From NCBI GenBank assembly GCA_965223415.1, contig OZ245002.1, positions 2,752,001-2,816,000 of the forward strand: a DNA stretch of 64,000 nucleotides, read 5' to 3'. Below are positions 19,618-62,573 of this stretch, piece by piece; the first letter of the stretch is position 1; every line of letters begins with the position of its first letter. Made by a program: the position numbers and the translations under genes. The stretch comes from Myxococcota bacterium (lineage in GTDB: Bacteria > Myxococcota_A > UBA9160 > UBA6930). The notes under the pieces were generated by a model. That model was not told the DNA's origin. It saw only the letters and a list, made by a program, of their open reading frames with translations, and searched no databases.

Positions 19618-19642
19618 GGATTGGAGATCTACTATCTAGTTA

Positions 19643-21301
19643 CTTCCCGTCCAAGAACTCGTAAGTCACTGAGAAGAAAAGGAATTGGCGCAAACGCGCC
19701 TCCCGATCGAGTTGCGATTGGTGTATGTTAGGTGGTGCCAACCTACCGAACATACACAGCAATTCGCCAACCGGGGGGTGAAGCGATGCGCCAATTCCGA
19801 GAAACTCAGCTCTCACTCACGCCCACATGGGGTCCGCATCAACATACCCGAGAGCTGCAGATGATCGCCAGGATCCTCGGGGCGGATCCGCGCTTGGGTG
19901 CTGTTGTGCACGGAGATCTGATCGGGGAACGTCGCGCCGATACCGGCCGTCGGGGCCTCAGCGGCGATCAGGTCCTTCGAATCGCCCTACTCAAGCAGAT
20001 CCACGGGCTGAGCTACCGGGAGTTGGAGTTTCACCTCCAGGACTCGGCCGCCTTCCGCAGCTTCGTAGGACTCGGGCTTGGTGACTGGCCCCGCTTCCAG
20101 ACCCTTCAGGACAACGTCAAACGGATCCGGCCCGAGACGTGGGAAGCCATCCACCGTGCGTTGATCGGCCTGGCTCGCCGGGAAGGAATCGAACGAGGCG
20201 AGACGATTCGGGCGGATACGACGGTCGTCGAGGCGAACATCCACGAGCCCGCCGACTCGGCCCTGCTCTGGGACAGCGTTCGGGTGATGACGCGGATTTT
20301 GCGAAGGATGGCGAAGCAACGCCCTTCGCTGCGCAAGATGTTCCCGGATCGTCGTCGTTGCGTGAAGCGACGCGCCTACGCGATCAAGTTCCACCGGCGG
20401 TCGATCAACCTGGTCGCGAGCTATCGGTGCATGATCCGGGCCACGGAAGAGGTCTGCCAAGCGGCCCGTAGCGTCGCGGAGAGGGTCGCCCGAGTCGAAG
20501 ACACGACGCCGCTTCGCGAAGAGCTCCTCGCGGTGCTTCCCCTCGTCGAGCGCGTCATCGATCAGAGCCGTCGCCGTGTCCTCGAAGGCGAGCGCGTCCC
20601 TGCAGCCGAGAAGATCGTGTCGATCTTCGAGCCGCACTCGGACATCCTCGTGAAGGACAATCGAGGCACCTACTACGGTCACAAGGTCTGTCTGACTGGC
20701 GGCAGGTCGTCACTCGTCCTCGACTGTGTCATCGAGGAAGGAAACCCTACGGACTCGACGCTGGTCGAACGTACGCTCGAGCGCCATGCAGATCTCTTCG
20801 GCAAGGCACCCCGCCAAGTGGCGATGGACGGAGGCTTCGCGTCCATGGACAACGTTGCCAAGGCCAAGGCGCTCGGCGTGGAAGACATGGCCTTCAACAA
20901 GAAGAGCGGACTCGAGGTCCACGAGATGGTGCGCAGCGCCTGGGTCTTCCGGCGCCTTCGTGACTTCCGCTCGGGGATCGAGGGCGTGATCTCGACGCTC
21001 AAGCGAGCGTTCCAGATGGACCGATGCACCTGGCGGGGCCTGGCGTCCTTCAAGGCCTATGTCTGGGCCAGTGTGACGAGCTTCAACCTCGTCGCCTTGG
21101 CCCGCCACCTGCTGACTCGCGAGTTCGCCTGAACCCCTGAGAGTGGTTCGGTCGGTGGACACGTGCGCCCGCGCATCGGAACACGGTCGCTCACTCACCC
21201 CGACGGCTCCGGGACTGCTGTGACATCGCTACTCTCAACGCCCGCGAAGACCGCCAACGATCCACTAAGAGGCCGACGAACGGCTCTTCTCGGACGGGAA
21301 G
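19643..21301 (+). mobile_element. ISNCY-type (ISDol1-like) insertion sequence
   Basis: Terminal IRs CTTCCCGTCCAAGAA / TTCTCGGACGGGAAG (14/15); flanking 6-bp direct repeat TAGTTA (19637-19642, 21302-21307). Confidence 0.9.
19786..21132 (+). CDS. ISNCY family DDE transposase
   Basis: ADTTVVEANIHEPADSALLWD, KIVSIFEPH, AMDGGFAS, FRSGIEGVIS. Confidence 0.9.
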   Translation: MRQFRETQLSLTPTWGPHQHTRELQMIARILGADPRLGAVVHGDLIGERRADTGRRGLSGDQVLRIALLKQIHGLSYRELEFHLQDSAAFRSFVGLGLGDWPRFQTLQDNVKRIRPETWEAIHRALIGLARREGIERGETIRADTTVVEANIHEPADSALLWDSVRVMTRILRRMAKQRPSLRKMFPDRRRCVKRRAYAIKFHRRSINLVASYRCMIRATEEVCQAARSVAERVARVEDTTPLREELLAVLPLVERVIDQSRRRVLEGERVPAAEKIVSIFEPHSDILVKDNRGTYYGHKVCLTGGRSSLVLDCVIEEGNPTDSTLVERTLERHADLFGKAPRQVAMDGGFASMDNVAKAKALGVEDMAFNKKSGLEVHEMVRSAWVFRRLRDFRSGIEGVISTLKRAFQMDRCTWRGLASFKAYVWASVTSFNLVALARHLLTREFA

Positions 21302-21318
21302 TAGTTAGGCGTCGCGAC

Positions 21319-21672
21319 ATGGAAACTAAGCCCAGGCGGTCTCTGGCGTCGCAGCTTCGCTCATCTGTCGAGCGGCTCGCGGCGCGTGGCGTCGAGCAAG
21401 TCGCCTGGGTCGAGCGCCAGGGCGTCCACGCTGATGAGCTGGCTCTAGACTTCTCGGACGCAGTGCTCCCCGCGGTAGTCAATCTCTCCAACGAGTTCAC
21501 GCCGGAGTTGCTCCTGCGACTAGAGCTCCTCGACGATCAGCTCTCGTCAATGTCGGGCACAGCCAAGGCTAGATTATGGACCAGCGCTTCAATCCTCAAC
21601 GACCCAGCCTGGGGGCGGGTGCGCACCCTGGCACAAGTTGCGCTCGATGCGCCCGGCTGGCCGCCGCTGTAG
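21319..21672 (+). CDS. Gene cassette 1: hypothetical protein (117 aa)
   Basis: ATG 8 nt after GTTAGGC; stop just before attC1; lower GC than flanking core genes. Confidence 0.75.
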   Translation: METKPRRSLASQLRSSVERLAARGVEQVAWVERQGVHADELALDFSDAVLPAVVNLSNEFTPELLLRLELLDDQLSSMSGTAKARLWTSASILNDPAWGRVRTLAQVALDAPGWPPL

Positions 21673-21682
21673 TGTGCGCGGC

Positions 21683-21811
21683 GCCTAACAAGCGGCTGCA
21701 GCTGACGGCTCCAAGCACCCTTCAAACGGCCATGGTAGCCTGGGGTTGTTCCTTGGCCGGTTCAGCGGGCGTCGGGGCCGTCGCCGCAGCTGAGCCGCCG
21801 GTCCGTTAGGC
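21683..21811 (+). other. attC recombination site 1 (intact, 129 bp)
   Basis: R'' GCCTAAC and R' GTTAGGC; arms GCGGCTGCAGCTGAC / GCAGCTGAGCCGC pair with extrahelical bases. Confidence 0.93.
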
Positions 21812-21818
21812 GGCTGGA

Positions 21819-22298
21819 ATGCGACCGCTCGGCAGACTTCTGGCGCTTGTTCTCCTCTCTGCCTGCAGCGAGTCGCCGGCCGAGAAGGTGCTTTCGCGAG
21901 TGGAAGAGAGCGGCCCGCAAGCAGTGATCGCTCAGCTCTTTCAGTCGGACACCGAGTGGACGGAGCTGAGTCGAAACATCGAGTCTGGCGACGACGCGTG
22001 GCTTCGCGTTGCGGCAAGCTTGCGCCCGGGTAGCGATGCGGGTTCAGCACTCAGTCTGATCTACTCGGTCGCACGTGCGATCCCGGCAAATCCCCACGGA
22101 GTTCTCTCGCTCGCGAAGGAAGGCCACTTCTCGATCGAGCTGATCTGCACGTCTCCGTTCATTGAGCCGGAGCCGGGAATCGCCGAGAGGTTCGCGGAGA
22201 AGGCATCGGAAGCCCTCTCGACCGTGCAGGACCCCCACCTCCTTCAGGTACGCGACGAATGCGTCACAAGAGTTCAACTGCCCCAGCCAGCCGCCTAA
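21819..22298 (+). CDS. Gene cassette 2: putative lipoprotein (159 aa)
   Basis: LSAC lipobox; TAA stop lies inside R'' of attC2; cassette ends GTTAGGCGGCTGG / CCAGCCGCCTAAC are perfectly complementary. Confidence 0.82.
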   Translation: MRPLGRLLALVLLSACSESPAEKVLSRVEESGPQAVIAQLFQSDTEWTELSRNIESGDDAWLRVAASLRPGSDAGSALSLIYSVARAIPANPHGVLSLAKEGHFSIELICTSPFIEPEPGIAERFAEKASEALSTVQDPHLLQVRDECVTRVQLPQPAA

Positions 22299-22317
22299 CC
22301 AGCGGCTGCAGCTGACC
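22293..22317 (+). other. attC site 2, left part (interrupted)
   Basis: GCCTAACCAGCGGCTGCAGCTGAC, 23/24 identical to the start of attC1. Confidence 0.9.
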
Positions 22318-22339
22318 CGTTTAGGGAGTGTCAACTCCA

Positions 22340-22560
22340 ATGATCGCGAAGCACGTGTGGGTCTTGGTGGTGTCCTCCAACGGAATCGGCTTGCGTCCCT
22401 GCGGGTTCGGGTTCAGTCCAAACGCGTTGTCGGCCTCGTGGGCTCAATGAGGGGTTCGGGGCGACGGTGGTGAATCGGGGCCAAGGGCTCATGGGCCGCA
22501 GTCAGCTGCCCGCCTACCGTCTTCGTTGGAACACAAGCGAGAAGGGGTCCTGGGGGAGCG
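22340..22560 (-). ncRNA. Candidate seekRNA/bridge RNA region of the IS1111-type element
   Basis: Non-coding region 3' of the transposase; 22501-22509 is the exact reverse complement of the attC flank GCAGCTGAC; boundaries approximate. Confidence 0.55.
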
Positions 22561-23299
22561 GGGCTACGCCATGCCAAGGCACCTCCGGAGATCGAAGGCC
22601 TCGCCGCGGGTGAGCGTGACCCAGACGCTGACGAGGAGTCTGCGAGCCAAGGCCATGCGGACCTTGTTCTTGTGGACGCGGGTCCGCATCGTCTTCGCCC
22701 AGGCACGAACCAACGGGTCGTCCTTCATCAGGCGAACCGCCCATTGGCTGACGATCCAGCGGAGCTCGGCCTGGCCTTGGCGGGTCATGCGGCCGTGGTG
22801 GGCGTGGTCGGCTGACTGGTTCACCTTGGGGGTGAAGCCGGCGAAGGCCGAGACCGCACGGGGGCCTCGGAATCGGTGCGGGTCGCCGATCTCGGCGAGC
22901 AGCGTGGCAGCCGATTGCGTCCCGATGCTCGGGAGCTCCTGCTCGAGGGCCTGGACGTCGGGATCCTCTCGCCCGATCCGTCGGATCTCCCGATCGAGAG
23001 CCAGCACCTGGCCCTGCAGGCTATCGAGCACCTGGAGCAGGGCCTTGAAGGCGGTCTGCATCTCCAGGGTCGGCAGGGTGACGGTGCGGAGCTTCTCCCG
23101 GCTCGGCTTGGTATAGAGCGCGCTCGTGGGAGCGGGAATCCGGTAGGCGTTCAGGAAGCCCCGGTGTCGAGGGACGTCATCTCTTGCGCGCTAAGAGGAC
23201 GGCTAGTTTTGCGCACCCCCCTGGGTTGATGTTCGGTTCTTCCTTCTTCTCTTCCGCTCTCCGAAGGAGAGCACGGCCGTCAGGCCGCCCTCTGGGGCC

Positions 23300-24100
23300 T
23301 CAACGCTGGGCGCTTTGCCCCGCGGCCTGCTCGAGCTCGCGGAGCCGGTAGCTCCGCCCCGAGATGTTGAGCACCTGGCTGTGGTGGAGGAGGCGATCGA
23401 GGATGGCGGTGGCCAGCACCTCGTCGCCCGCCAGCACCTCGGGCCAGTCGGCGATGCCCTTGTTCGTGGTGATCAGGATCGAGCCCCTCCCATAGCGGTA
23501 GGAGACGAGCCGGAAGAAGAGGCTCGCCTCCTGGCGCGTCATGGGCTCGAAGCCGACCTCGTCGATGACGAGGAGCGCCACGTTCATGTGCTTGCGCCGC
23601 CGCAGCCGTTGCGGGCTGATCTCGGCGTCGCGCTTGAGGGCCGCCAGCAGGTCCTCGAGGCGATGGAAGGCCACGGAGAAGCCGTTCTCCACGGCCCGCA
23701 CCCCCAGGGCCACCGCCAGGTGGGTCTTGCCCACTCCCGGCGGACCCTGGATCAGCAGACTCTCCTTGGCCCGGATCCACGCGCAGGTGCCCAGCGTCTC
23801 GATCCGGCTCCGCTCCACACTCGGCTGGAAGGCGAAGTCGAAGTTGCCGAGGGTCTGCCCCGTGGGAAGGCCCGAGAGACGGAGCGAGGTCTTCATCCTC
23901 CGCTCCTCGCGGTGCTGCAGCTCGGCCTCGAGCAGCAGGTCGAGGAAGCGGTGGGGCACGAGGTCGTCCTTGGTCGCTCGGGCCAGCTCCTCGCCGATGT
24001 GCTCGGCCGCGTGATGGAGGCCGAGGCGCACGAGCCGCTCGCGGGTCGGGTCGAGATCCACCTTGCCGCCCTTCTTGGGCACCGGGTTTCCCGCCGTCAT
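23300..24100 (-). CDS. istB: IS21 helper ATPase IstB
   Basis: GPPGVGKT Walker A, LLVIDEVG, ITTN, AILDRLLH, SYR; ATGA overlap with istA. Confidence 0.96.
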   Translation of the reverse strand: MTAGNPVPKKGGKVDLDPTRERLVRLGLHHAAEHIGEELARATKDDLVPHRFLDLLLEAELQHREERRMKTSLRLSGLPTGQTLGNFDFAFQPSVERSRIETLGTCAWIRAKESLLIQGPPGVGKTHLAVALGVRAVENGFSVAFHRLEDLLAALKRDAEISPQRLRRRKHMNVALLVIDEVGFEPMTRQEASLFFRLVSYRYGRGSILITTNKGIADWPEVLAGDEVLATAILDRLLHHSQVLNISGRSYRLRELEQAAGQSAQR

Positions 24101-25383
24101 CGCGCCACCTCCGCCAGATCGGCATAGAGGTCGATCGGCCGCTGCTCCGGCTCCATCGCCCACAGCTCCTGGAGGCGTCGACCCATGCGCCCGAGCGGTA
24201 CGGGCGCCTCCACCCCCTCCGTGCTCGGCCCCTCGTAGTGGCTCGGGTCCAGCAGCAGGCGGCTTCGCGTGTGGCGCGGGTGCGCGGCCACCACCGAGCC
24301 CTCGGCCCAGACCTGCACCTGCCGGGCGCAGCCGCGCACCTCGACGCTCTGCTCGACGAAGCGGAAGGGGACGCTGTAGGTACGCCCCTCGAAGCGCACC
24401 GTGGCGTCGCGCCCGACACGTCGCATCACGGCCAGGTCGAAGGGCTCGGGAAGCCGCTCGGGCAGGGCCCCGAGATGGGGCTTCTCCGCCTCCCACGCCT
24501 GGAAGACCGTCGTGCCCGTCGCCGGGCACTGCCGCCGGTGGCTCGAGCGCGCCACCTGGCCGTCCGTCCACGCTTGCAGCGACTCCAGGCTCTCGTGCTC
24601 CCGCCGACGCGGATCGAAGCCCCGCCGGTGCCCCAGGATCCGACGCTCCACCTTCCCCTTCTCCTGCGGCTGGCGGGGACGGGTGGCGTCCACGTGGAAG
24701 CGAAGGGCCCCGGCATAGCTCGCGTAAGCCGGGTTCACCGTCCCCCATGGCCCCGCCCCCTTCGCCACCGCTGTCTTCACGTTGTCGACCCGCAGCACCG
24801 CCGGCACCCCGCCCAGCCGCTCGAAGGCCCGGTTGTGCACGTCCAGCCACGCCAGCGTGTCCGCCCGCTCCGACCACACCACCGCTTCTCGCCGCGAGTG
24901 CGAGAGCACCAGGTGGAAGGCATGCAGGTCCACCTCCTGGCCCCCGATCCGCACGCCCGGAAACTCGCCCCAGTCCACCTGACCCTGCGCCCCGGGCGGT
25001 GTCTCCACCCGACGCCGGCTCCGCACCTTCGGTCTCGGGAACCGGGCCCGCACGTACCGCTGCACGCTCTTGGAGCTCCCCGTGTACCCGTGCTCCTCCA
25101 CCAGGAACTCGTGAAGCTCCTGCAGGTTCACGCCACGGCCTCCCGAGCTCGCCTCCAGCCACTCCGCGATCACCTCGTGGACCGCCTCGGCCAGGAAGGG
25201 CTTCCCGCTCCGGCCGTCTCGCGCCCCCTCCGCCAGCCGCTTCAGCCGGTAGCGCACCGCGCTCTCCCGGATCCCCAGCTGGCGGGCGATCTCCCGGTTC
25301 GAGCACCCCCGCTCGTGCAGCACTTCGATCGTCATCACTTCCTCCTGCCTCAGTCGCCGCTGCCCCACGCCCCCCTCCCTCAC
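24097..25383 (-). CDS. istA: IS21 transposase IstA
   Basis: HTH, ETPPGAQGQVDWG, VDNVKTAV, KGKVER, YSVP; start may be ~25334. Confidence 0.95.
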   Translation of the reverse strand: MREGGVGQRRLRQEEVMTIEVLHERGCSNREIARQLGIRESAVRYRLKRLAEGARDGRSGKPFLAEAVHEVIAEWLEASSGGRGVNLQELHEFLVEEHGYTGSSKSVQRYVRARFPRPKVRSRRRVETPPGAQGQVDWGEFPGVRIGGQEVDLHAFHLVLSHSRREAVVWSERADTLAWLDVHNRAFERLGGVPAVLRVDNVKTAVAKGAGPWGTVNPAYASYAGALRFHVDATRPRQPQEKGKVERRILGHRRGFDPRRREHESLESLQAWTDGQVARSSHRRQCPATGTTVFQAWEAEKPHLGALPERLPEPFDLAVMRRVGRDATVRFEGRTYSVPFRFVEQSVEVRGCARQVQVWAEGSVVAAHPRHTRSRLLLDPSHYEGPSTEGVEAPVPLGRMGRRLQELWAMEPEQRPIDLYADLAEVAR

Positions 25384-26001
25384 GGGGAACGTGCCGCGCA
25401 GCGGCTCAACAGGAGGTGCGCAAATCTACGTGTCCTCTTAGCCCTCGAATATCACGTCCTGCGACACCCCGGAGCTGGTTCACGGCCTGTTGGCGCATCT
25501 GGACGAGGCGGTGGCGGACCCGAAGGAGCTTCCTCCTCCCGTACTCCTCGTCGCTCGGGTAGTAGGTCGTTGCCACCCGATCCAGATCACCGAGCCAGAG
25601 CCGGCGTGCAATCTCGGCTGCATCTCGCCGGTCCGTCTTCTTGCCGAGCTTCTTCAGGTCGAGCTTGCGCGGATCACAGACCAGAACGTCGAGCTGCGCC
25701 TCTCGGCAGGCGTTGACGAACCACCGGTTGAGGCCCAACGCCTCGACGGCTACGCGGCAATGGGGTCCGAAGAACTTCAGCCGCTCCACGACCCCGAGGC
25801 CCTGTTCAAGGCTCTCGGAGCGGATCCTCTCCTCGGCGATCTTCTCACCCCGCGCATCCAGCACGCAGATCTGGATCACGGTGCGATGCAAGTCGATCCC
25901 AGCGAAGTACTCTGTCGTCATGGTCAGTCTCCTTGGGGAGTGTTTGTTGGAACACAGCCAAGGTGGCTGTTCTCCAAGGAGCTGACCTCCCTATACCCTC
26001 C

Positions 26002-26103
26002 GGGCCCCGCTCGTCCCAATCGAGGCATGATACCCTGGGGTTCCACTCAGGTGGCTCGGCGAGCCTCGGGGCCGGCCCGGCAGCTGAGCCGCCAGTCCGT
26101 TAG
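26002..26103 (+). other. attC site 2, right part
   Basis: Ends GCAGCTGAGCCGCCAGTCCGTTAG, near-identical to the attC1 3' arm; continues as GCGGC at 27344 once the IS110 is removed. Confidence 0.9.
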
Positions 26104-26118
26104 ATACTCCCTTCGTCG

Positions 26119-27114
26119 TCAACCCTTCGTGGCGAAGAATTTCTCGCCAAGGAAGTCCTGGTCGTGGCGGAGCATGCCGTAGATGGCGTGGAGCAGCTTC
26201 CGCATGACGGCGACGAGTGCTTGCATCTTGGTTTTGCCCTTGGAGAGCAGCTTCTCGTAGAAGGCCTTCACGTTCGGTTCCCAGCGTGCAGCGACCATCG
26301 CAGGAAGAAAGAGTGCGCGGCGAAGGTGGGCGTTGCCGGTCTTGCTGATGCGAGCTGGCTTGTGCACAGAGGTGCCCGATTGAAACTGTCGGGGGTCGAG
26401 GCCCGCATGCGCGACCCATTGCCGGGTCGTCATGTCCTTGGGCAAGGTGCCTAGCTCGGCGAGCAACTGGATGCCGGCTGCGTCGGCGATACCCTTGATC
26501 GATGTGATGTGGCCGAAGTCTCTGGCGAGCTCGGGGCTCTGCTCGATCACCTTCAACGCTTGCTTGCGCAGCCGATCGATTCGCCCCTCCAGGAGCTCGA
26601 TCAGTTCGCGGATGTCTTGCTTCACGAACTCACTGAGCTCCTCGCTCTGGTCGTTGGCATGGAGCCGGTTCTTCTCCTGCGTCACGGTCTTGCTCAGAGC
26701 CTCCACGCGGCGGGAGAGGGCCCGTACCTCCAGAATTCGGGGGTCCGGCGGAGTCCAGGCGGAAAACTCCATGCGCATTCCGAACTCGAGAATCGTTTCC
26801 GCATCGAGCGCATCCGTCTTGGAGCGTTGAAGCGATGCCTTGGCGAACGCGGCAATGGCCCGCGGGTTCGCCACCATCACCTGGGACGCCTTCGCACGGT
26901 GAAGCGCGAACGCGAGGTCGAGGCCGTACACCCCGGTCGATTCCAGGACGACGCGCGCCGTCGCATTCCCCTTCGTGGCCCACCGAATCAGCCTCTGGTG
27001 GCCCTTGGGATCGTTCGCAAAGACCAGCCCGCCCTCGCGAGTTCCGTTCCGGTCGATGGCGACGACGAGCTCCTTCGCCCCGACGTCCACGCCCACGTAA
27101 TGACACTTCTTCAA
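26119..27114 (-). CDS. IS110 family bridge recombinase (intact, 331 aa)
   Basis: GVDVG, LESTGVY, NP, KTDALDA (DEDD) and AGLDP..QSGTS serine motif; TTG start after GGAGGA RBS. Confidence 0.95.
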   Translation of the reverse strand: MKKCHYVGVDVGAKELVVAIDRNGTREGGLVFANDPKGHQRLIRWATKGNATARVVLESTGVYGLDLAFALHRAKASQVMVANPRAIAAFAKASLQRSKTDALDAETILEFGMRMEFSAWTPPDPRILEVRALSRRVEALSKTVTQEKNRLHANDQSEELSEFVKQDIRELIELLEGRIDRLRKQALKVIEQSPELARDFGHITSIKGIADAAGIQLLAELGTLPKDMTTRQWVAHAGLDPRQFQSGTSVHKPARISKTGNAHLRRALFLPAMVAARWEPNVKAFYEKLLSKGKTKMQALVAVMRKLLHAIYGMLRHDQDFLGEKFFATKG

Positions 27115-27159
27115 GGTCTCTCCTCCCCGTGATAAGCTGGGACCCGGGTCTCCCGACCC

Positions 27160-27336
27160 TGCACATTCACCTACGGACCTTGTAGACGCAGGCTCTCGGG
27201 CCTCGGATACTCCACGGCATGGGTGACGAGGGCGGGAGGCCCATCTAACGGACAAGCTCTCTGGCTTCAGGCAGCGACGGCCTTTCCCGGGAACCCATCT
27301 CGGAGTCTCACTCAGGCCCGAAGAGCCTGCTCAGAG
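27160..27336 (-). ncRNA. Predicted bridge RNA of the IS110 element
   Basis: 5' hairpin plus two internal-loop stems; guides LTG 27276-27269, RTG 27253-27245, LDG 27213-27206, RDG 27184-27179 match target and donor; ends approximate. Confidence 0.85.
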
Positions 27337-27343
27337 GTACAAG

Positions 27344-27461
27344 GCGGCGCCCTGCGAACGGCGAGACTCGACCACTTGATCGCGCTTGTCTGTCTTGTCG
27401 CAGTCAGCTTTGGCTGCGTGAACCCAAGCTCCTCATCACGAATTCGCATCTTCGTGAGCGA
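27344..27461 (+). pseudogene. Gene cassette 3 remnant (signal-peptide-like ORF start) truncated by IS21 B
   Basis: Follows the reconstructed GTTAGGC; frame LIALVCLVAVSFGC resembles a lipoprotein signal; no attC follows. Confidence 0.5.
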
Positions 27462-27541
27462 CCCTCGGTGGACGTCTGAAAACCGGCCAAAGGTGGACGT
27501 CTCAAAGGCGGCCAAAGGGCCGCGCCCAGGACAGAGGGGTT

Positions 27542-29879: not shown

Positions 29880-29988
29880 GGCGGCGGGGGATCGCAGGTC
29901 CCTCGCCGTCGTCAACGTCCTGGGCGTCAGCCCCTATGGCCGCTTTTCAGACGTCCTTCTATGGCCGGTTTTGGGTGTCCACCGAGGG

Positions 29989-30301
29989 CCTCGAAGACCG
30001 GGAGGCCGAGGGCACGGGCCGCCTGCTTGCACATCTCGAACTGGGGCGCGAGATCGTCGGGAACCTCGTCGCCCCGCGAGGCCTTGTAGCCCGGGAAGGC
30101 GTCGTTCCGGAACGACGTCATTGCGAAGTCGAAGCAGCAGGCCATGTGGGTCGGCTCCTGCTCCGAGAGGAGCCGCAGCAGCGTGTTGGTGAAGCCGTAG
30201 GCCGCCTGAGTGGCCGTCTCGCCGTCCGGCCCGAGCATCTCCGGCAGCGAGAAGTACGCCCGGAAGACGTAGACATGCGCATCGATCAGATGAACGAGCA
30301 T
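29989..30301 (-). pseudogene. 5'-3' exonuclease (PolI N-terminal/FEN-like), truncated at IS21 B
   Basis: HLIDAHVYVFRAYF, YGF, FD..SFRN..PGYKASR; frame runs into the IS end before the expected EADD motif. Confidence 0.88.
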
Positions 30302-30303
30302 CG

Positions 30304-30329
30304 ACAACTTAACAAACGAAACCGGCCCC
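30304..30329. repeat. Short dispersed intergenic repeat, copy 1
   Basis: ACAACTTAACAAACGAAACCGGCCCC; 22/26 identical to the reverse complement of 52386-52411. Confidence 0.6.
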
Positions 30330-61048: not shown

Positions 61049-62573
61049 CCCTGATCCGGCATTGAGATCACGGATCCGAGCGTAGGTCTGGCGGGCTCAC
61101 GCGGCGAGCGCGGTCTCGGCGGCCCGGATGGTGGAGCGGCTGCGCGAGGACGCGGCGATTCGGAGCGAAGCGCGTCCGGCAGGCCGAGCGATGCGGCCAG
61201 GGAGCTGGATCAGCTCGAAGCGGAGCGTGCGGAGCGAGGGGAAGCGGAGCCGGGCGGTCCGCTTTCGGCCGTTGGGTCGCTCTGGCAGGCCAAGCGTGGC
61301 TTGGAAGTCCCGCACCAGGTTGTGGGTCAGGGCACTGAGCAGCTGCCAGTTGCTGTTGGCGTCCCAGTCCTGGGTCGGGATGGTGGCGAACGCCAGGTGC
61401 TGTTTGAGCTCGGCCAGCGTCTTCTCGTGGCCGCCGCGTCCGGCCATGAAGGCCCAGACGGCGGCCTCGCTGGTCCGCTTGTTCGTCGCGACCATCGAGT
61501 ACTCGTAGTGGCCATCGTCCGGGGTGAAGAGGTCGAGCTGGAAGTTCTTCGCGCTTCGCCCGGAGACCTTCTTGCGGAACACCACGATCCGCTCGCAGCG
61601 CTTCCACTGTGGGATCCGGTGGACGACGGAGAAGGCGTCGACGCTCGCGTTGACGCGGTGCCAACGCTTCCGGGCGGCGATCTTCTCACGCACGCCGAGC
61701 CAGCGCCACATGGGGACCTTGAGGGCGTACTCCACGCGAGAGGCCGTGAGAACCTCGAGAACGGCCTTCTGGAAGAAGGCGCCATCGAGCCGCACCTCGA
61801 TCGGGACCCGATCGAGGCGCCGCTTCGCGTCGCCCAGGAGAAAGGCCAGCTTCTCCGCAGCGCCCACCGCATCGTTCACATTGCCCGGCCGGTTCCATAC
61901 GCCGAGCAGCTGGCTCGTCTGCGCCAGGTGCGCCGTCAGCGGGTAGTAGGACGGGTCCTTCGGGTGATGTGGGTTGAAGCCGCGCTCGGCGCCGTCCACG
62001 TACTCGCCCGTCCGAAGCACGGTGCCGTCCAGCTCGATCGTGGCCCGCTCCAAGCCGAGCCCTGTGTGGGTTCCATAGGCCATGTCCCGCAGCAGTTCGT
62101 TCAGACGATCGCGGTAGCCCGACGTCAGCTCCTTCAGGTTCCTCGCCAGGGTCCGCTCGTCCGGAAGCCGCTGCAATCGGACGAACCGCCGAAACAACGG
62201 ATCCCGATCGAGCACCCGGACATGCGAGAGACGGCTCCCTCCCAGCAGCAGCATCCCCACCACCACCAGCATGCAGCGGAAGGATCCGTAGTCCGAGTCG
62301 AACGCCCGATCCGCAAAGGCCGCTTTCAGGCGCTCTGCCCAAAAGCGGTCGAAGAAGCGCCGGAACAGCTCCAGCCCGCCGTAGCTCGTCAGCGCCTCAT
62401 CCGTGAAGGCGATCGACAATTCGCCCTTGACGCGGGCTCGAATCCGGTGTCTGCTTAGCTTCACGAATGTGGCTCCTCGGAGGCATGATGGTGGTTGGCA
62501 CTTCCATCAAGCACACCGACGGAGCCACTTTCAATTCCGGGCTTTCCCTACACCTCGCAATGCCGGATCAGGG
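61049..62573 (-). mobile_element. IS1380 family element
   Basis: Perfect 16-bp IR CCCTGATCCGGCATTG; 4-bp DR CTAG (61045-61048, 62574-62577). Confidence 0.95.
61097..62464 (-). CDS. IS1380 family transposase
   Basis: LTSYGG, ELDGT, SYYPL, RPGN, VRLDGAF, RGGHEKTLAELK. Confidence 0.92.
   Translation of the reverse strand: MKLSRHRIRARVKGELSIAFTDEALTSYGGLELFRRFFDRFWAERLKAAFADRAFDSDYGSFRCMLVVVGMLLLGGSRLSHVRVLDRDPLFRRFVRLQRLPDERTLARNLKELTSGYRDRLNELLRDMAYGTHTGLGLERATIELDGTVLRTGEYVDGAERGFNPHHPKDPSYYPLTAHLAQTSQLLGVWNRPGNVNDAVGAAEKLAFLLGDAKRRLDRVPIEVRLDGAFFQKAVLEVLTASRVEYALKVPMWRWLGVREKIAARKRWHRVNASVDAFSVVHRIPQWKRCERIVVFRKKVSGRSAKNFQLDLFTPDDGHYEYSMVATNKRTSEAAVWAFMAGRGGHEKTLAELKQHLAFATIPTQDWDANSNWQLLSALTHNLVRDFQATLGLPERPNGRKRTARLRFPSLRTLRFELIQLPGRIARPAGRASLRIAASSRSRSTIRAAETALAA

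Follow-up and report, generated by a model that had tools for sequence, protein, structure and literature searches.

What directs an insertion sequence (IS) into the crossover box of an integron attC site? The question is raised by a 64,000-nt stretch of the genome of a Myxococcota bacterium (GTDB lineage Bacteria; Myxococcota_A; UBA9160; UBA6930; GenBank assembly GCA_965223415.1, contig OZ245002.1, positions 2,752,001 to 2,816,000 of the forward strand), which we call the window and in which an element of the IS110 family, here named IS-A, lies within the R' box of such a site. IS-A is very probably a complete IS110-group insertion sequence that is guided by a bridge RNA, has attC R' as its target and uses an IS621-type reaction. 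The evidence comes from the anatomy of the element, the attC nature of the targets, the conservation of an RNA structure in the left end and the covariation of guides with flanks among relatives. The lineage appears to be widespread and undescribed.

Results

IS-A is a complete IS110-group element

IS-A spans 26104..27343 on the minus strand (1240 bp, one copy of the CT core being counted). Its boundaries were read from the junctions and are common to its relatives, whose ends resemble its own (..GAGTAT|CT and CT|TGTA..). On the plus strand the right junction reads GTCCGTTAG (26095-26103) followed by ATACTCC, and the left junction GGTACAAG (to 27343) followed by GCGGCG. The core dinucleotide CT of the minus strand, which appears as AG on the plus strand, is read directly at both the right (26102..26103) and the left (27342..27343) junction. 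The left end, which is non-coding, has a length of 227 nt and the right end one of 15 nt; both are flanked by CT, and there are no long terminal inverted repeats. A long left and a short right end are the layout that separates the IS110 group from the IS1111 group (PMC11208160).

The recombinase gene (26119..27114, minus strand, 331 aa) has a TTG start codon after GGGGAGGAGAG. Its product has an N-terminal DEDD RuvC-like domain and a C-terminal Tnp domain with a conserved Ser-Gly pair, and matches PF01548 (E = 3.8e-26) and PF02371 (E = 1.5e-20) in Pfam as well as the NCBIfam model NF033542 'IS110 family RNA-guided transposase' (218 bits, cut-off 140). Its best match of solved structure is ISCro4 (PDB: 9t56, E = 4.2e-49, residues 3-320), and IS621 (PDB: 8wt6) is matched over the same residues with E = 2e-46. 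These matches bear out the intact IS110-type recombinase of the initial annotation. Residues D10, E58, D101, D104 and S246-G247 are present, conserved in the alignment of homologues and aligned to ISCro4; they occupy the positions of D11, E60, D102, D105 and S241-G242 of IS621, the catalytic set of that enzyme (D11, E60, D102, D105, S241, G242; PMC11208158).

The insertion splits the R' box of an attC site

The window holds two attC sites, 610 bp apart. The intact one, attC1 (21683..21811, plus strand), starts with GCCTAAC and ends with GTTAGGC, boxes of the RYYYAAC and GTTRRRY types that close a 129-nt imperfect hairpin with unpaired bases; in the folded bottom strand GGAC is unpaired beside the box (z = -2.63, 1 of 200 shuffles being as good). 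The target is present in it, unoccupied, at 21801-21814, where GTCCGTTAG and then GCGGC run on uninterrupted. The second site, attC_b, is split three ways. Its 5' half (22293..22316, plus strand; R'' box GCCTAAC and L'') equals attC1 over 24 nt except for two bases (2 matches; 0 in 100 shuffles), and the TAA within this R'' box is the stop codon of the open reading frame (ORF) 21819-22298. Its 3' half (26053..26103, plus strand), which ends in GTTAG of the R' box, is a repeat of attC1 (51 nt, 21759-21809 versus 26053-26103, 84% identity). What remains of the R' box (GC), together with the initial bases of the next cassette, follows IS-A at 27344..27352 (plus strand); on the element strand this is the left target. 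IS-A is placed between GTTAG and GC of the R' box, and it is antisense to the cassettes, whose ORFs (21319-21672 and 21819-22298) are on the plus strand. The initial annotation had held that the target is an attC R' box and that removal of IS-A restores an R' region like that of attC1; the uninterrupted sequence at 21801-21814, the boxes, the hairpin, the cassette stop codon within R'' and the arrays around relatives (below) uphold both claims. What is left of the local array is two cassettes, with housekeeping genes on either side and no integrase in view among the ORFs scanned (below).

The left end encodes a predicted bridge RNA

The non-coding left end (27115..27341; this and the RNA features that follow are on the minus strand) encodes a predicted bridge RNA, to which a covariance model built from relatives, R1, assigns 166.6 bits on 27294-27141. 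A 5' hairpin, CAGGC ... GCCTG (27313..27329), was seen by eye and in a fold of the whole end, and lies outside the conserved alignment. The target-binding loop (27238..27282; outer stem 27282-27279/27241-27238, inner hairpin 27267-27254) holds the left target guide (LTG) CGCUGCCU (27269..27276; DNA CGCTGCCT), which corresponds in sense to the left flank CGCCGCCT, one position being a U:G wobble, and the right target guide (RTG) GUCCGUUAG (27245..27253; DNA GTCCGTTAG), the exact complement of CT+AACGGAC. Among relatives the two covary with the left and right flanks, respectively. A long stem (27151..27237; 27237-27229/27160-27151) encloses the donor-binding loop (27167..27226; outer stem 27226-27217/27174-27167, inner hairpin 27203-27190). 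Here the left donor guide (LDG) GGAGUAUC (27206..27213; DNA GGAGTATC) has the sense of the right end plus C, and the right donor guide (RDG) UACAAG (27179..27184; DNA TACAAG) is the complement of CT+TGTA. In both loops the guides occupy the unpaired strands that flank the inner hairpin.

For the conserved structure, the left ends of 40 loci from the relatives described below were aligned with that of IS-A, followed by the RNA part of 35 sequences; extra copies from multi-copy genomes, sequences cut by contig ends and those with large insertions (L059, L065, L061) were left out. The consensus has six helices, namely the outer and inner stems of the target loop (helices 1 and 2), the nine-pair long stem (helix 3) and two outer and one inner donor-loop helices (helices 4-6), together 29 pairs with 96.6% of cells paired. 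Changes on both sides are found in 16 of the 29 pairs, a number reached by none of 500 shuffles, and sliding the partners by 1-3 columns as a control leaves at most 56.6% of cells paired and at most 4 such pairs. Helices 1 and 2 contribute 6 of their 8 pairs to this count and helix 3, with 97.8% of its cells paired, 4 of its 9. The initial annotation had placed four guide segments within stem-flanked loops and had proposed a covariance model of the left end as a check; all four were confirmed by direct reading, the helices are backed by the compensatory changes in the 35 relatives, and IS-A is covered by model R1 over all of its 154 positions. Applied to a copy of IS621 (L081), the model finds the donor loop, which is thus detectably homologous, with both donor guides in register (16.2 bits, E = 0.009); the IS621 target loop gave no alignment with it.

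In 20000 mononucleotide shuffles of the 187-nt body of the left end, a 9-nt antisense target match arose in 397, an 8-nt sense donor match in 274, a 6-nt antisense donor match in 5830 and all four observed guide lengths together in 1. Taken singly, the guide matches within IS-A are thus only moderately improbable, and the strong case is the comparison with relatives.

The two ends also carry the halves of a putative promoter that would exist only in a circle. The -35 half would be TTGACG, over the recombinase stop codon (26117..26122, minus strand), at which position cTTGAC is kept in most relatives; the -10 half would be TACCTC (27334..27339, minus strand), a weak match, and 17 nt separate the two once the ends of IS-A are joined. 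The IS621 copy has the same geometry (TTGCAG, 17 nt, TATTAT), and a promoter reconstituted across the core has been described (PMC11208160).

Guides follow flanks among the relatives of IS-A

The IS-A recombinase has more than 5000 homologues, the nearest of which are 64-87% identical and mostly lie on short metagenome contigs. An alignment of 16 homologues led to 80 loci on one-genome-per-species contigs (45-83% identity; numbered here with the prefix L). Guides were taken from 78 of them, the right and left flanks being read separately, and 57 of the 78 were kept for a covariation test; the 21 dropped loci (L004, L012, L016, L017, L018, L025, L028, L034, L036, L046, L059, L065-L068, L070-L074 and L077) had no recognised end in the searched interval, a frameshift or a contig end. 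The 57 loci make up 35 guide classes. Outside the core, guides match their own left flanks at 4.66 of 6 positions and those of other classes at 2.80, the corresponding values on the right being 4.09 and 2.15 of 6, and the observed total was reached by none of 10000 permutations. Guide/target covariation, suggested as a check in the initial annotation, therefore holds over the 35 classes. Where a lineage has a different target, its guides agree with its own flanks over 8-10 nt (e.g. L020, L031, L032, L035, L064, L076 and L078). Among matches of this length, the left flanks of L031, L064 and L078 are identical to the guides GCCCATCCT, TAGGGGCT and TCCTTCTT, and in L028 the right guide is CCCTGAAG and the flank CTTCAGGG. 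The flank base that faces the U of the left guide is sometimes C and sometimes T, so that wobble widens the target.

An attC-type right flank is found in 33 of the 80 loci (22 of the CT|AACG type and 11 reading AT|AAC(G/A)), and the expectation that other copies would lie in the same kind of site is borne out to this extent. Among the 22, L002 is cut after AAC, L014 reads CC|AACGG and L004 was read separately. L012 and L016 have an attC-type guide and no readable flank, which brings the total to 35 loci in 23 assemblies. For 12 of 20 CT-type right flanks a script detected fold-back pairing with a GTTAG box at a distance of 51-175 nt; L014, L021 and L027 have GTTAGCC, seen by eye and outside the script pattern, and the remaining flanks exceed the range or reach a contig end. 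Counted strictly, hairpins closed by the boxes mark 20 free sites in 32 attC-class loci (176 kb, 14 loci having at least one) and 3 in 45 other loci (216 kb), a looser first finder having been unspecific (77 hits versus 54).

Several of these relatives lie within cassette arrays. In L006 another six sites stand free on the same strand (at 173, 1001, 1593, 4168, 4641 and 5240), spaced 470-830 bp apart, and L009 has three free sites. An integron integrase is encoded 1.8 kb from the element of L007, beside the array (TIGR02249, 318.5 bits, cut-off 265); at the other loci the integrase context is limited to 2.5-kb flanks. The hosts are environmental Myxococcota, Gemmatimonadota, Acidobacteriota, Thermodesulfobacteriota and Bacteroidota/Rhodothermota. 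ORFs of the PF00144 beta-lactamase family occur in the flanks of two attC-class loci (L015:3549-4859 and L022:5205-5975).

One Methylophagaceae genome contains eighteen copies (L039-L056), whose right flanks share only CTAC; L049 and L051 carry a different left guide, which fits their own flanks better than the majority guide would. Near-identical elements (branch lengths 0-0.07; L030, L031 and L060 versus L035, L039 and L052) occur both on 1.4-1.7-kb contigs binned as Methanosarcinaceae archaea and in Methylophaga-like bacteria, a near-identity that reflects either mis-binning or very recent transfer.

Core variants and retargeting

In the group of L059 and L065-L077, AT replaces CT in all four guides and at both junctions. 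This is a Bacteroidota/Rhodothermota lineage with attC-like targets (boxes ..ATAAC and GTTAT...), ten copies of which (L065-L077) are found in one genome, some at most 10 kb apart; another IS110-family ORF adjoins several of them (e.g. L065:367-1425 and L067:3640-4698). A second set is mixed. In L005, L006, L009 and L016 the left guide and left junction have AT, and in L078 TT, while all five have CT at the right junction and in the other three guides; the native free sites of L006 and L009 have an AT core. In these loci the left junction keeps the core of the target and the right junction the CT of the donor, as is predicted by top-strand cleavage just 3' of the core, the position described for IS621 (PMC11208158).

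A tree was made of 45 recombinases, one representative per genome or guide class, with IS621 as a long-branched outgroup. IS-A groups with L001, L002, L003, L005, L006 and L009 in a supported clade whose seven rows all target attC; more of the attC-targeting rows fall into additional supported groups, the AT-core pair branches as sister to the others, and the backbone is not resolved. L020, which has another target, is nested among L027, L037 and L062, and L034 is nested among rows with other targets, so that retargeting between close relatives has taken place. The description of IS-A as 'retargeted' in the initial annotation stands in this respect and not as to a direction toward attC: attC R' is the commonest target of the clade and may be ancestral there.

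Comparison with known systems

IS-A resembles IS621 in protein architecture (36% identity over 96% of the length), in a left-end RNA with two internal loops and the guide order LTG, RTG, LDG, RDG, in its CT core and in a split promoter at the same distance from the core. The guide order and strand logic, which had been likened to those of the IS621 bridge RNA, agree with the description in PMC11208160. The likeness of core and donor also held: the IS621 copy L081 ends in ..ACAGTAT|CT and CT|TGTATTAT, donor ends that share ..AGTAT|CT and CT|TGTA.. with IS-A and are nearly the same. Unlike IS621, which targets repetitive extragenic palindromes (REPs) of E. coli, IS-A has attC R' as its target; its RTG matches 7 nt past the core, whereas the RTG of IS621 has four bases (PMC11208160); its right end has 15 nt against about 100 nt in L081, and its left end 227 nt against 191 in IS621 (PMC11208160). 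The DEDD and SG motifs of ISCro4 (PDB: 9t56) align with those of IS-A, the comparison being one of proteins.

The IS1111-attC group (ISPa21, ISPst6, ISKpn4, ISPa25) shares with IS-A membership of the IS110 superfamily, attC targets and antisense insertion. Its members insert near the 5' end of attC (PMC3001079), whereas IS-A lies in the 3' R' box; they have subterminal inverted repeats and an RNA downstream of the gene, whereas the RNA of IS-A is upstream and its right end measures 15 nt. For ISKpn4, ISPst6 and ISPa25, an element-encoded RNA with segments matching both target strands guides attC targeting (PMC11187229). Targeting of attC by a guide RNA is hence already published for IS1111-type elements. 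Group IIC-attC introns also insert into attC in antisense (PMC3001079), but are retroelements with a ribozyme and a reverse transcriptase, unrelated to IS-A in mechanism and sequence.

A full-text literature search, made outside ISfinder and the primary IS1111-attC papers, returned no IS110-group element aimed at the R' box. In PMC11208160 the word attC occurs in the reference list only; at least three sequences in its supplementary target lists contain CCGCCTAAC, and elements that target the R' box were therefore probably present among those data without being remarked on. In mechanism IS-A follows a known family; within the reach of our searches, what is new is where in attC it inserts, the lineage itself and how widely that lineage is spread.

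Other elements around attC_b

The 5' part of the same attC is occupied by a distant IS110-family element, IS-B (22317-26052, minus strand), which was missed by the initial annotation. It follows directly after GCAGCTGAC and is antisense to the cassettes. Its left end of 131 nt, right end of 247 nt and subterminal inverted repeats of about 12 nt are the IS1111 habit, and the right end contains GCAGCTGAC, antisense to the adjoining target. The gene is in two pieces (25921-25406 and 23061-22564); the C-terminal part of the product is 26% identical to IS-A, and the N-terminal part has no BLASTP similarity to it. A comparison of the N-terminal part with plasmids gave no match, so that no named IS1111-attC relative is tied to IS-B. 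The 51-nt repeat was considered as part of the ends of IS-B and was ruled out in that role by its presence in attC1, where no IS is found, and by the same flank in relatives of IS-A.

Two related IS21-family elements (IstA/IstB, inverted repeats) lie at 23190-25442, splitting IS-B, and from 27459 to ~29993; the latter interrupts the sequence 115 bp past IS-A, truncating an ORF that resembles a 5'-3' exonuclease (29927-30307, PF02739). An ISNCY-family element (19636-21308; NF033593, 435 bits) abuts with its right end GTTAGGC at 21304-21310, which starts the cassette with ORF 21319-21672; the element may sit in or beside another R'-type box, and no attC was seen in its left flank. An IS1380-family transposase gene is found at 61097-62464 on the minus strand (NF033539, 211 bits).

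Weighing the evidence

Several observations weigh against the assignment of IS-A as a guided, attC-specific element. Within the window it is a single copy, and a scan of 63 ORFs there (16 + 47) revealed no integron integrase. Left-flank matches are weak in some attC-class loci (L011, 1/6; L015, 3/6; L062, 3/6), L061 (2 and 2) and L080 (2 and 2) are weak too, some of the weak cases being one-base alignment shifts, and beyond AACG the right guide is often mismatched at positions 7-8 (L003, L027, L037). Folded as a whole, the left end reaches a minimum energy no better than that of shuffles (z = -1.12). A search of the window with Rfam 15 returned nothing for IS-A, nor did it return a bridge-RNA match for the left end of IS621, that library holding no bridge-RNA family. 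A sigma-70 scan of 26000-27500 gave no promoter, and the -10 half, TATATC or TATCTC in relatives, is the poor TACCTC in IS-A.

The single copy and the weak -10 hexamer would equally suit an element that is structurally whole but an immobile fossil within a nest of insertion sequences, as would the equally good target in attC1, unoccupied 4.3 kb away, and the heavy disruption of the region by ISNCY-, IS21- and IS1111-type elements. We consider this unlikely, if by no means negligible: the ORF is open, of full length and has all catalytic residues, the RNA reaches its 166.6 bits over the whole model, and both ends and both cores are intact.

A different question is what is recognised. Targets of the clade are very often hairpin-forming repeats, either attC or the G/C-rich palindromes of L017, L018, L023 and L025; the abstract of a 2026 preprint (10.64898/2026.03.19.712850) describes a sequence-structure dual-match rule for ISPpu10; and when the bottom strand of attC1 is folded, the spacer left unpaired corresponds to right-target positions 4-7 (GGAC). 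The folded attC hairpin might then be recognised, by the protein or by a sequence-structure rule, with the RNA guides only refining the choice of target. The base-by-base covariation of guides with flanks, which extends to lineages without a hairpin in the flanks, such as L039-L056, makes this improbable. So does the choice of box: all 33 readable attC-class insertions are on the R' side and none on R'', although R'' shares the box and the stem, the only difference being the spacer read by the right guide, which argues that the long right guide is used. That the repeats are REP-like chromosomal palindromes resembling attC, and IS-A an ordinary REP-targeting IS110 element like IS621, ISPpu9 and ISPa11, in a family that commonly targets REPs, is very improbable, since against the lack of an integrase among the scanned ORFs and the mere two sites in the window, and the unspecific loose hairpin finder, stand boxes that fit RYYYAAC/GTTRRRY and are kept while the site sequences vary, an ORF that ends within R'', cassette-sized spacing in L006 and L009 and the TIGR02249 integrase beside the array of L007.

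Discussion

A model of the reaction

With IS-A taken as an RNA-guided element of the IS621 type, its target loop would read a 16-bp site of double-stranded DNA with the sequence GCCGC-CT-AACGGAC on the element strand. Seen on the cassette strand, the site is the R' box GTTAGGC, flanked on one side by the R'-L' spacer and opposite it by 3 bp of the next cassette. The donor loop would read the joined ends of IS-A (right end GGAGTAT, core CT, left end TGTAC). By homology with IS621, IS-A would be excised as a circle, in which the split promoter of the joined ends would drive transcription of both RNA and recombinase; a recombinase tetramer with the RNA would then pair circle and target, and cutting of the top strands just 3' of CT would give a Holliday junction whose resolution leaves an antisense insertion between GTTAG and GC. 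On the same homology, IS-A may be active at present.

Integron crossover lies between G and TT, and an element inserted in this position would therefore formally be part of the downstream cassette. The cut of IS-A, if placed as in IS621, would be 2 nt from the cut position of the integron integrase IntI. The insertion point is 4 nt inside the downstream cassette, and the right end of IS-A restores a consensus box, GTTAGAT, at 26099-26105; an attC with GTTAGAT should stay recombinogenic, with the element as the first part of the next cassette. It is conceivable, and we put it forward tentatively, that the lineage uses the integron as a second vehicle, IntI excising and reinserting the element together with the downstream cassette, so that it would have two mobilities. 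The ten copies of L065-L077 share flanks in pieces: L067 and L077 share at least 2200 nt on the left and only 100 nt on the right, L072 and L073 share 1450 nt on the left and only 50 nt on the right, and L067 and L071 share 1450 nt on the right and none on the left. The breakpoint of L072/L073 near 793 is not at a recognisable attC, and the pattern fits recombination between copies or assembly/segmental duplication as well as it fits cassette movement. Were the integron used in this way, RNA-guided mobility would act within arrays and integrase-driven mobility between them.

IS-A and its relatives represent a second, independent RNA-guided lineage that has settled on attC, in this case at the crossover box itself, and such elements could shape array stability and cassette mobility beyond the clinical integrons in which IS1111-attC elements have been described. 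The clade is also a natural reprogramming series, with 35 guide classes on one conserved scaffold, long right guides and CT or AT cores, and some of its natural junctions record which core each product inherited.

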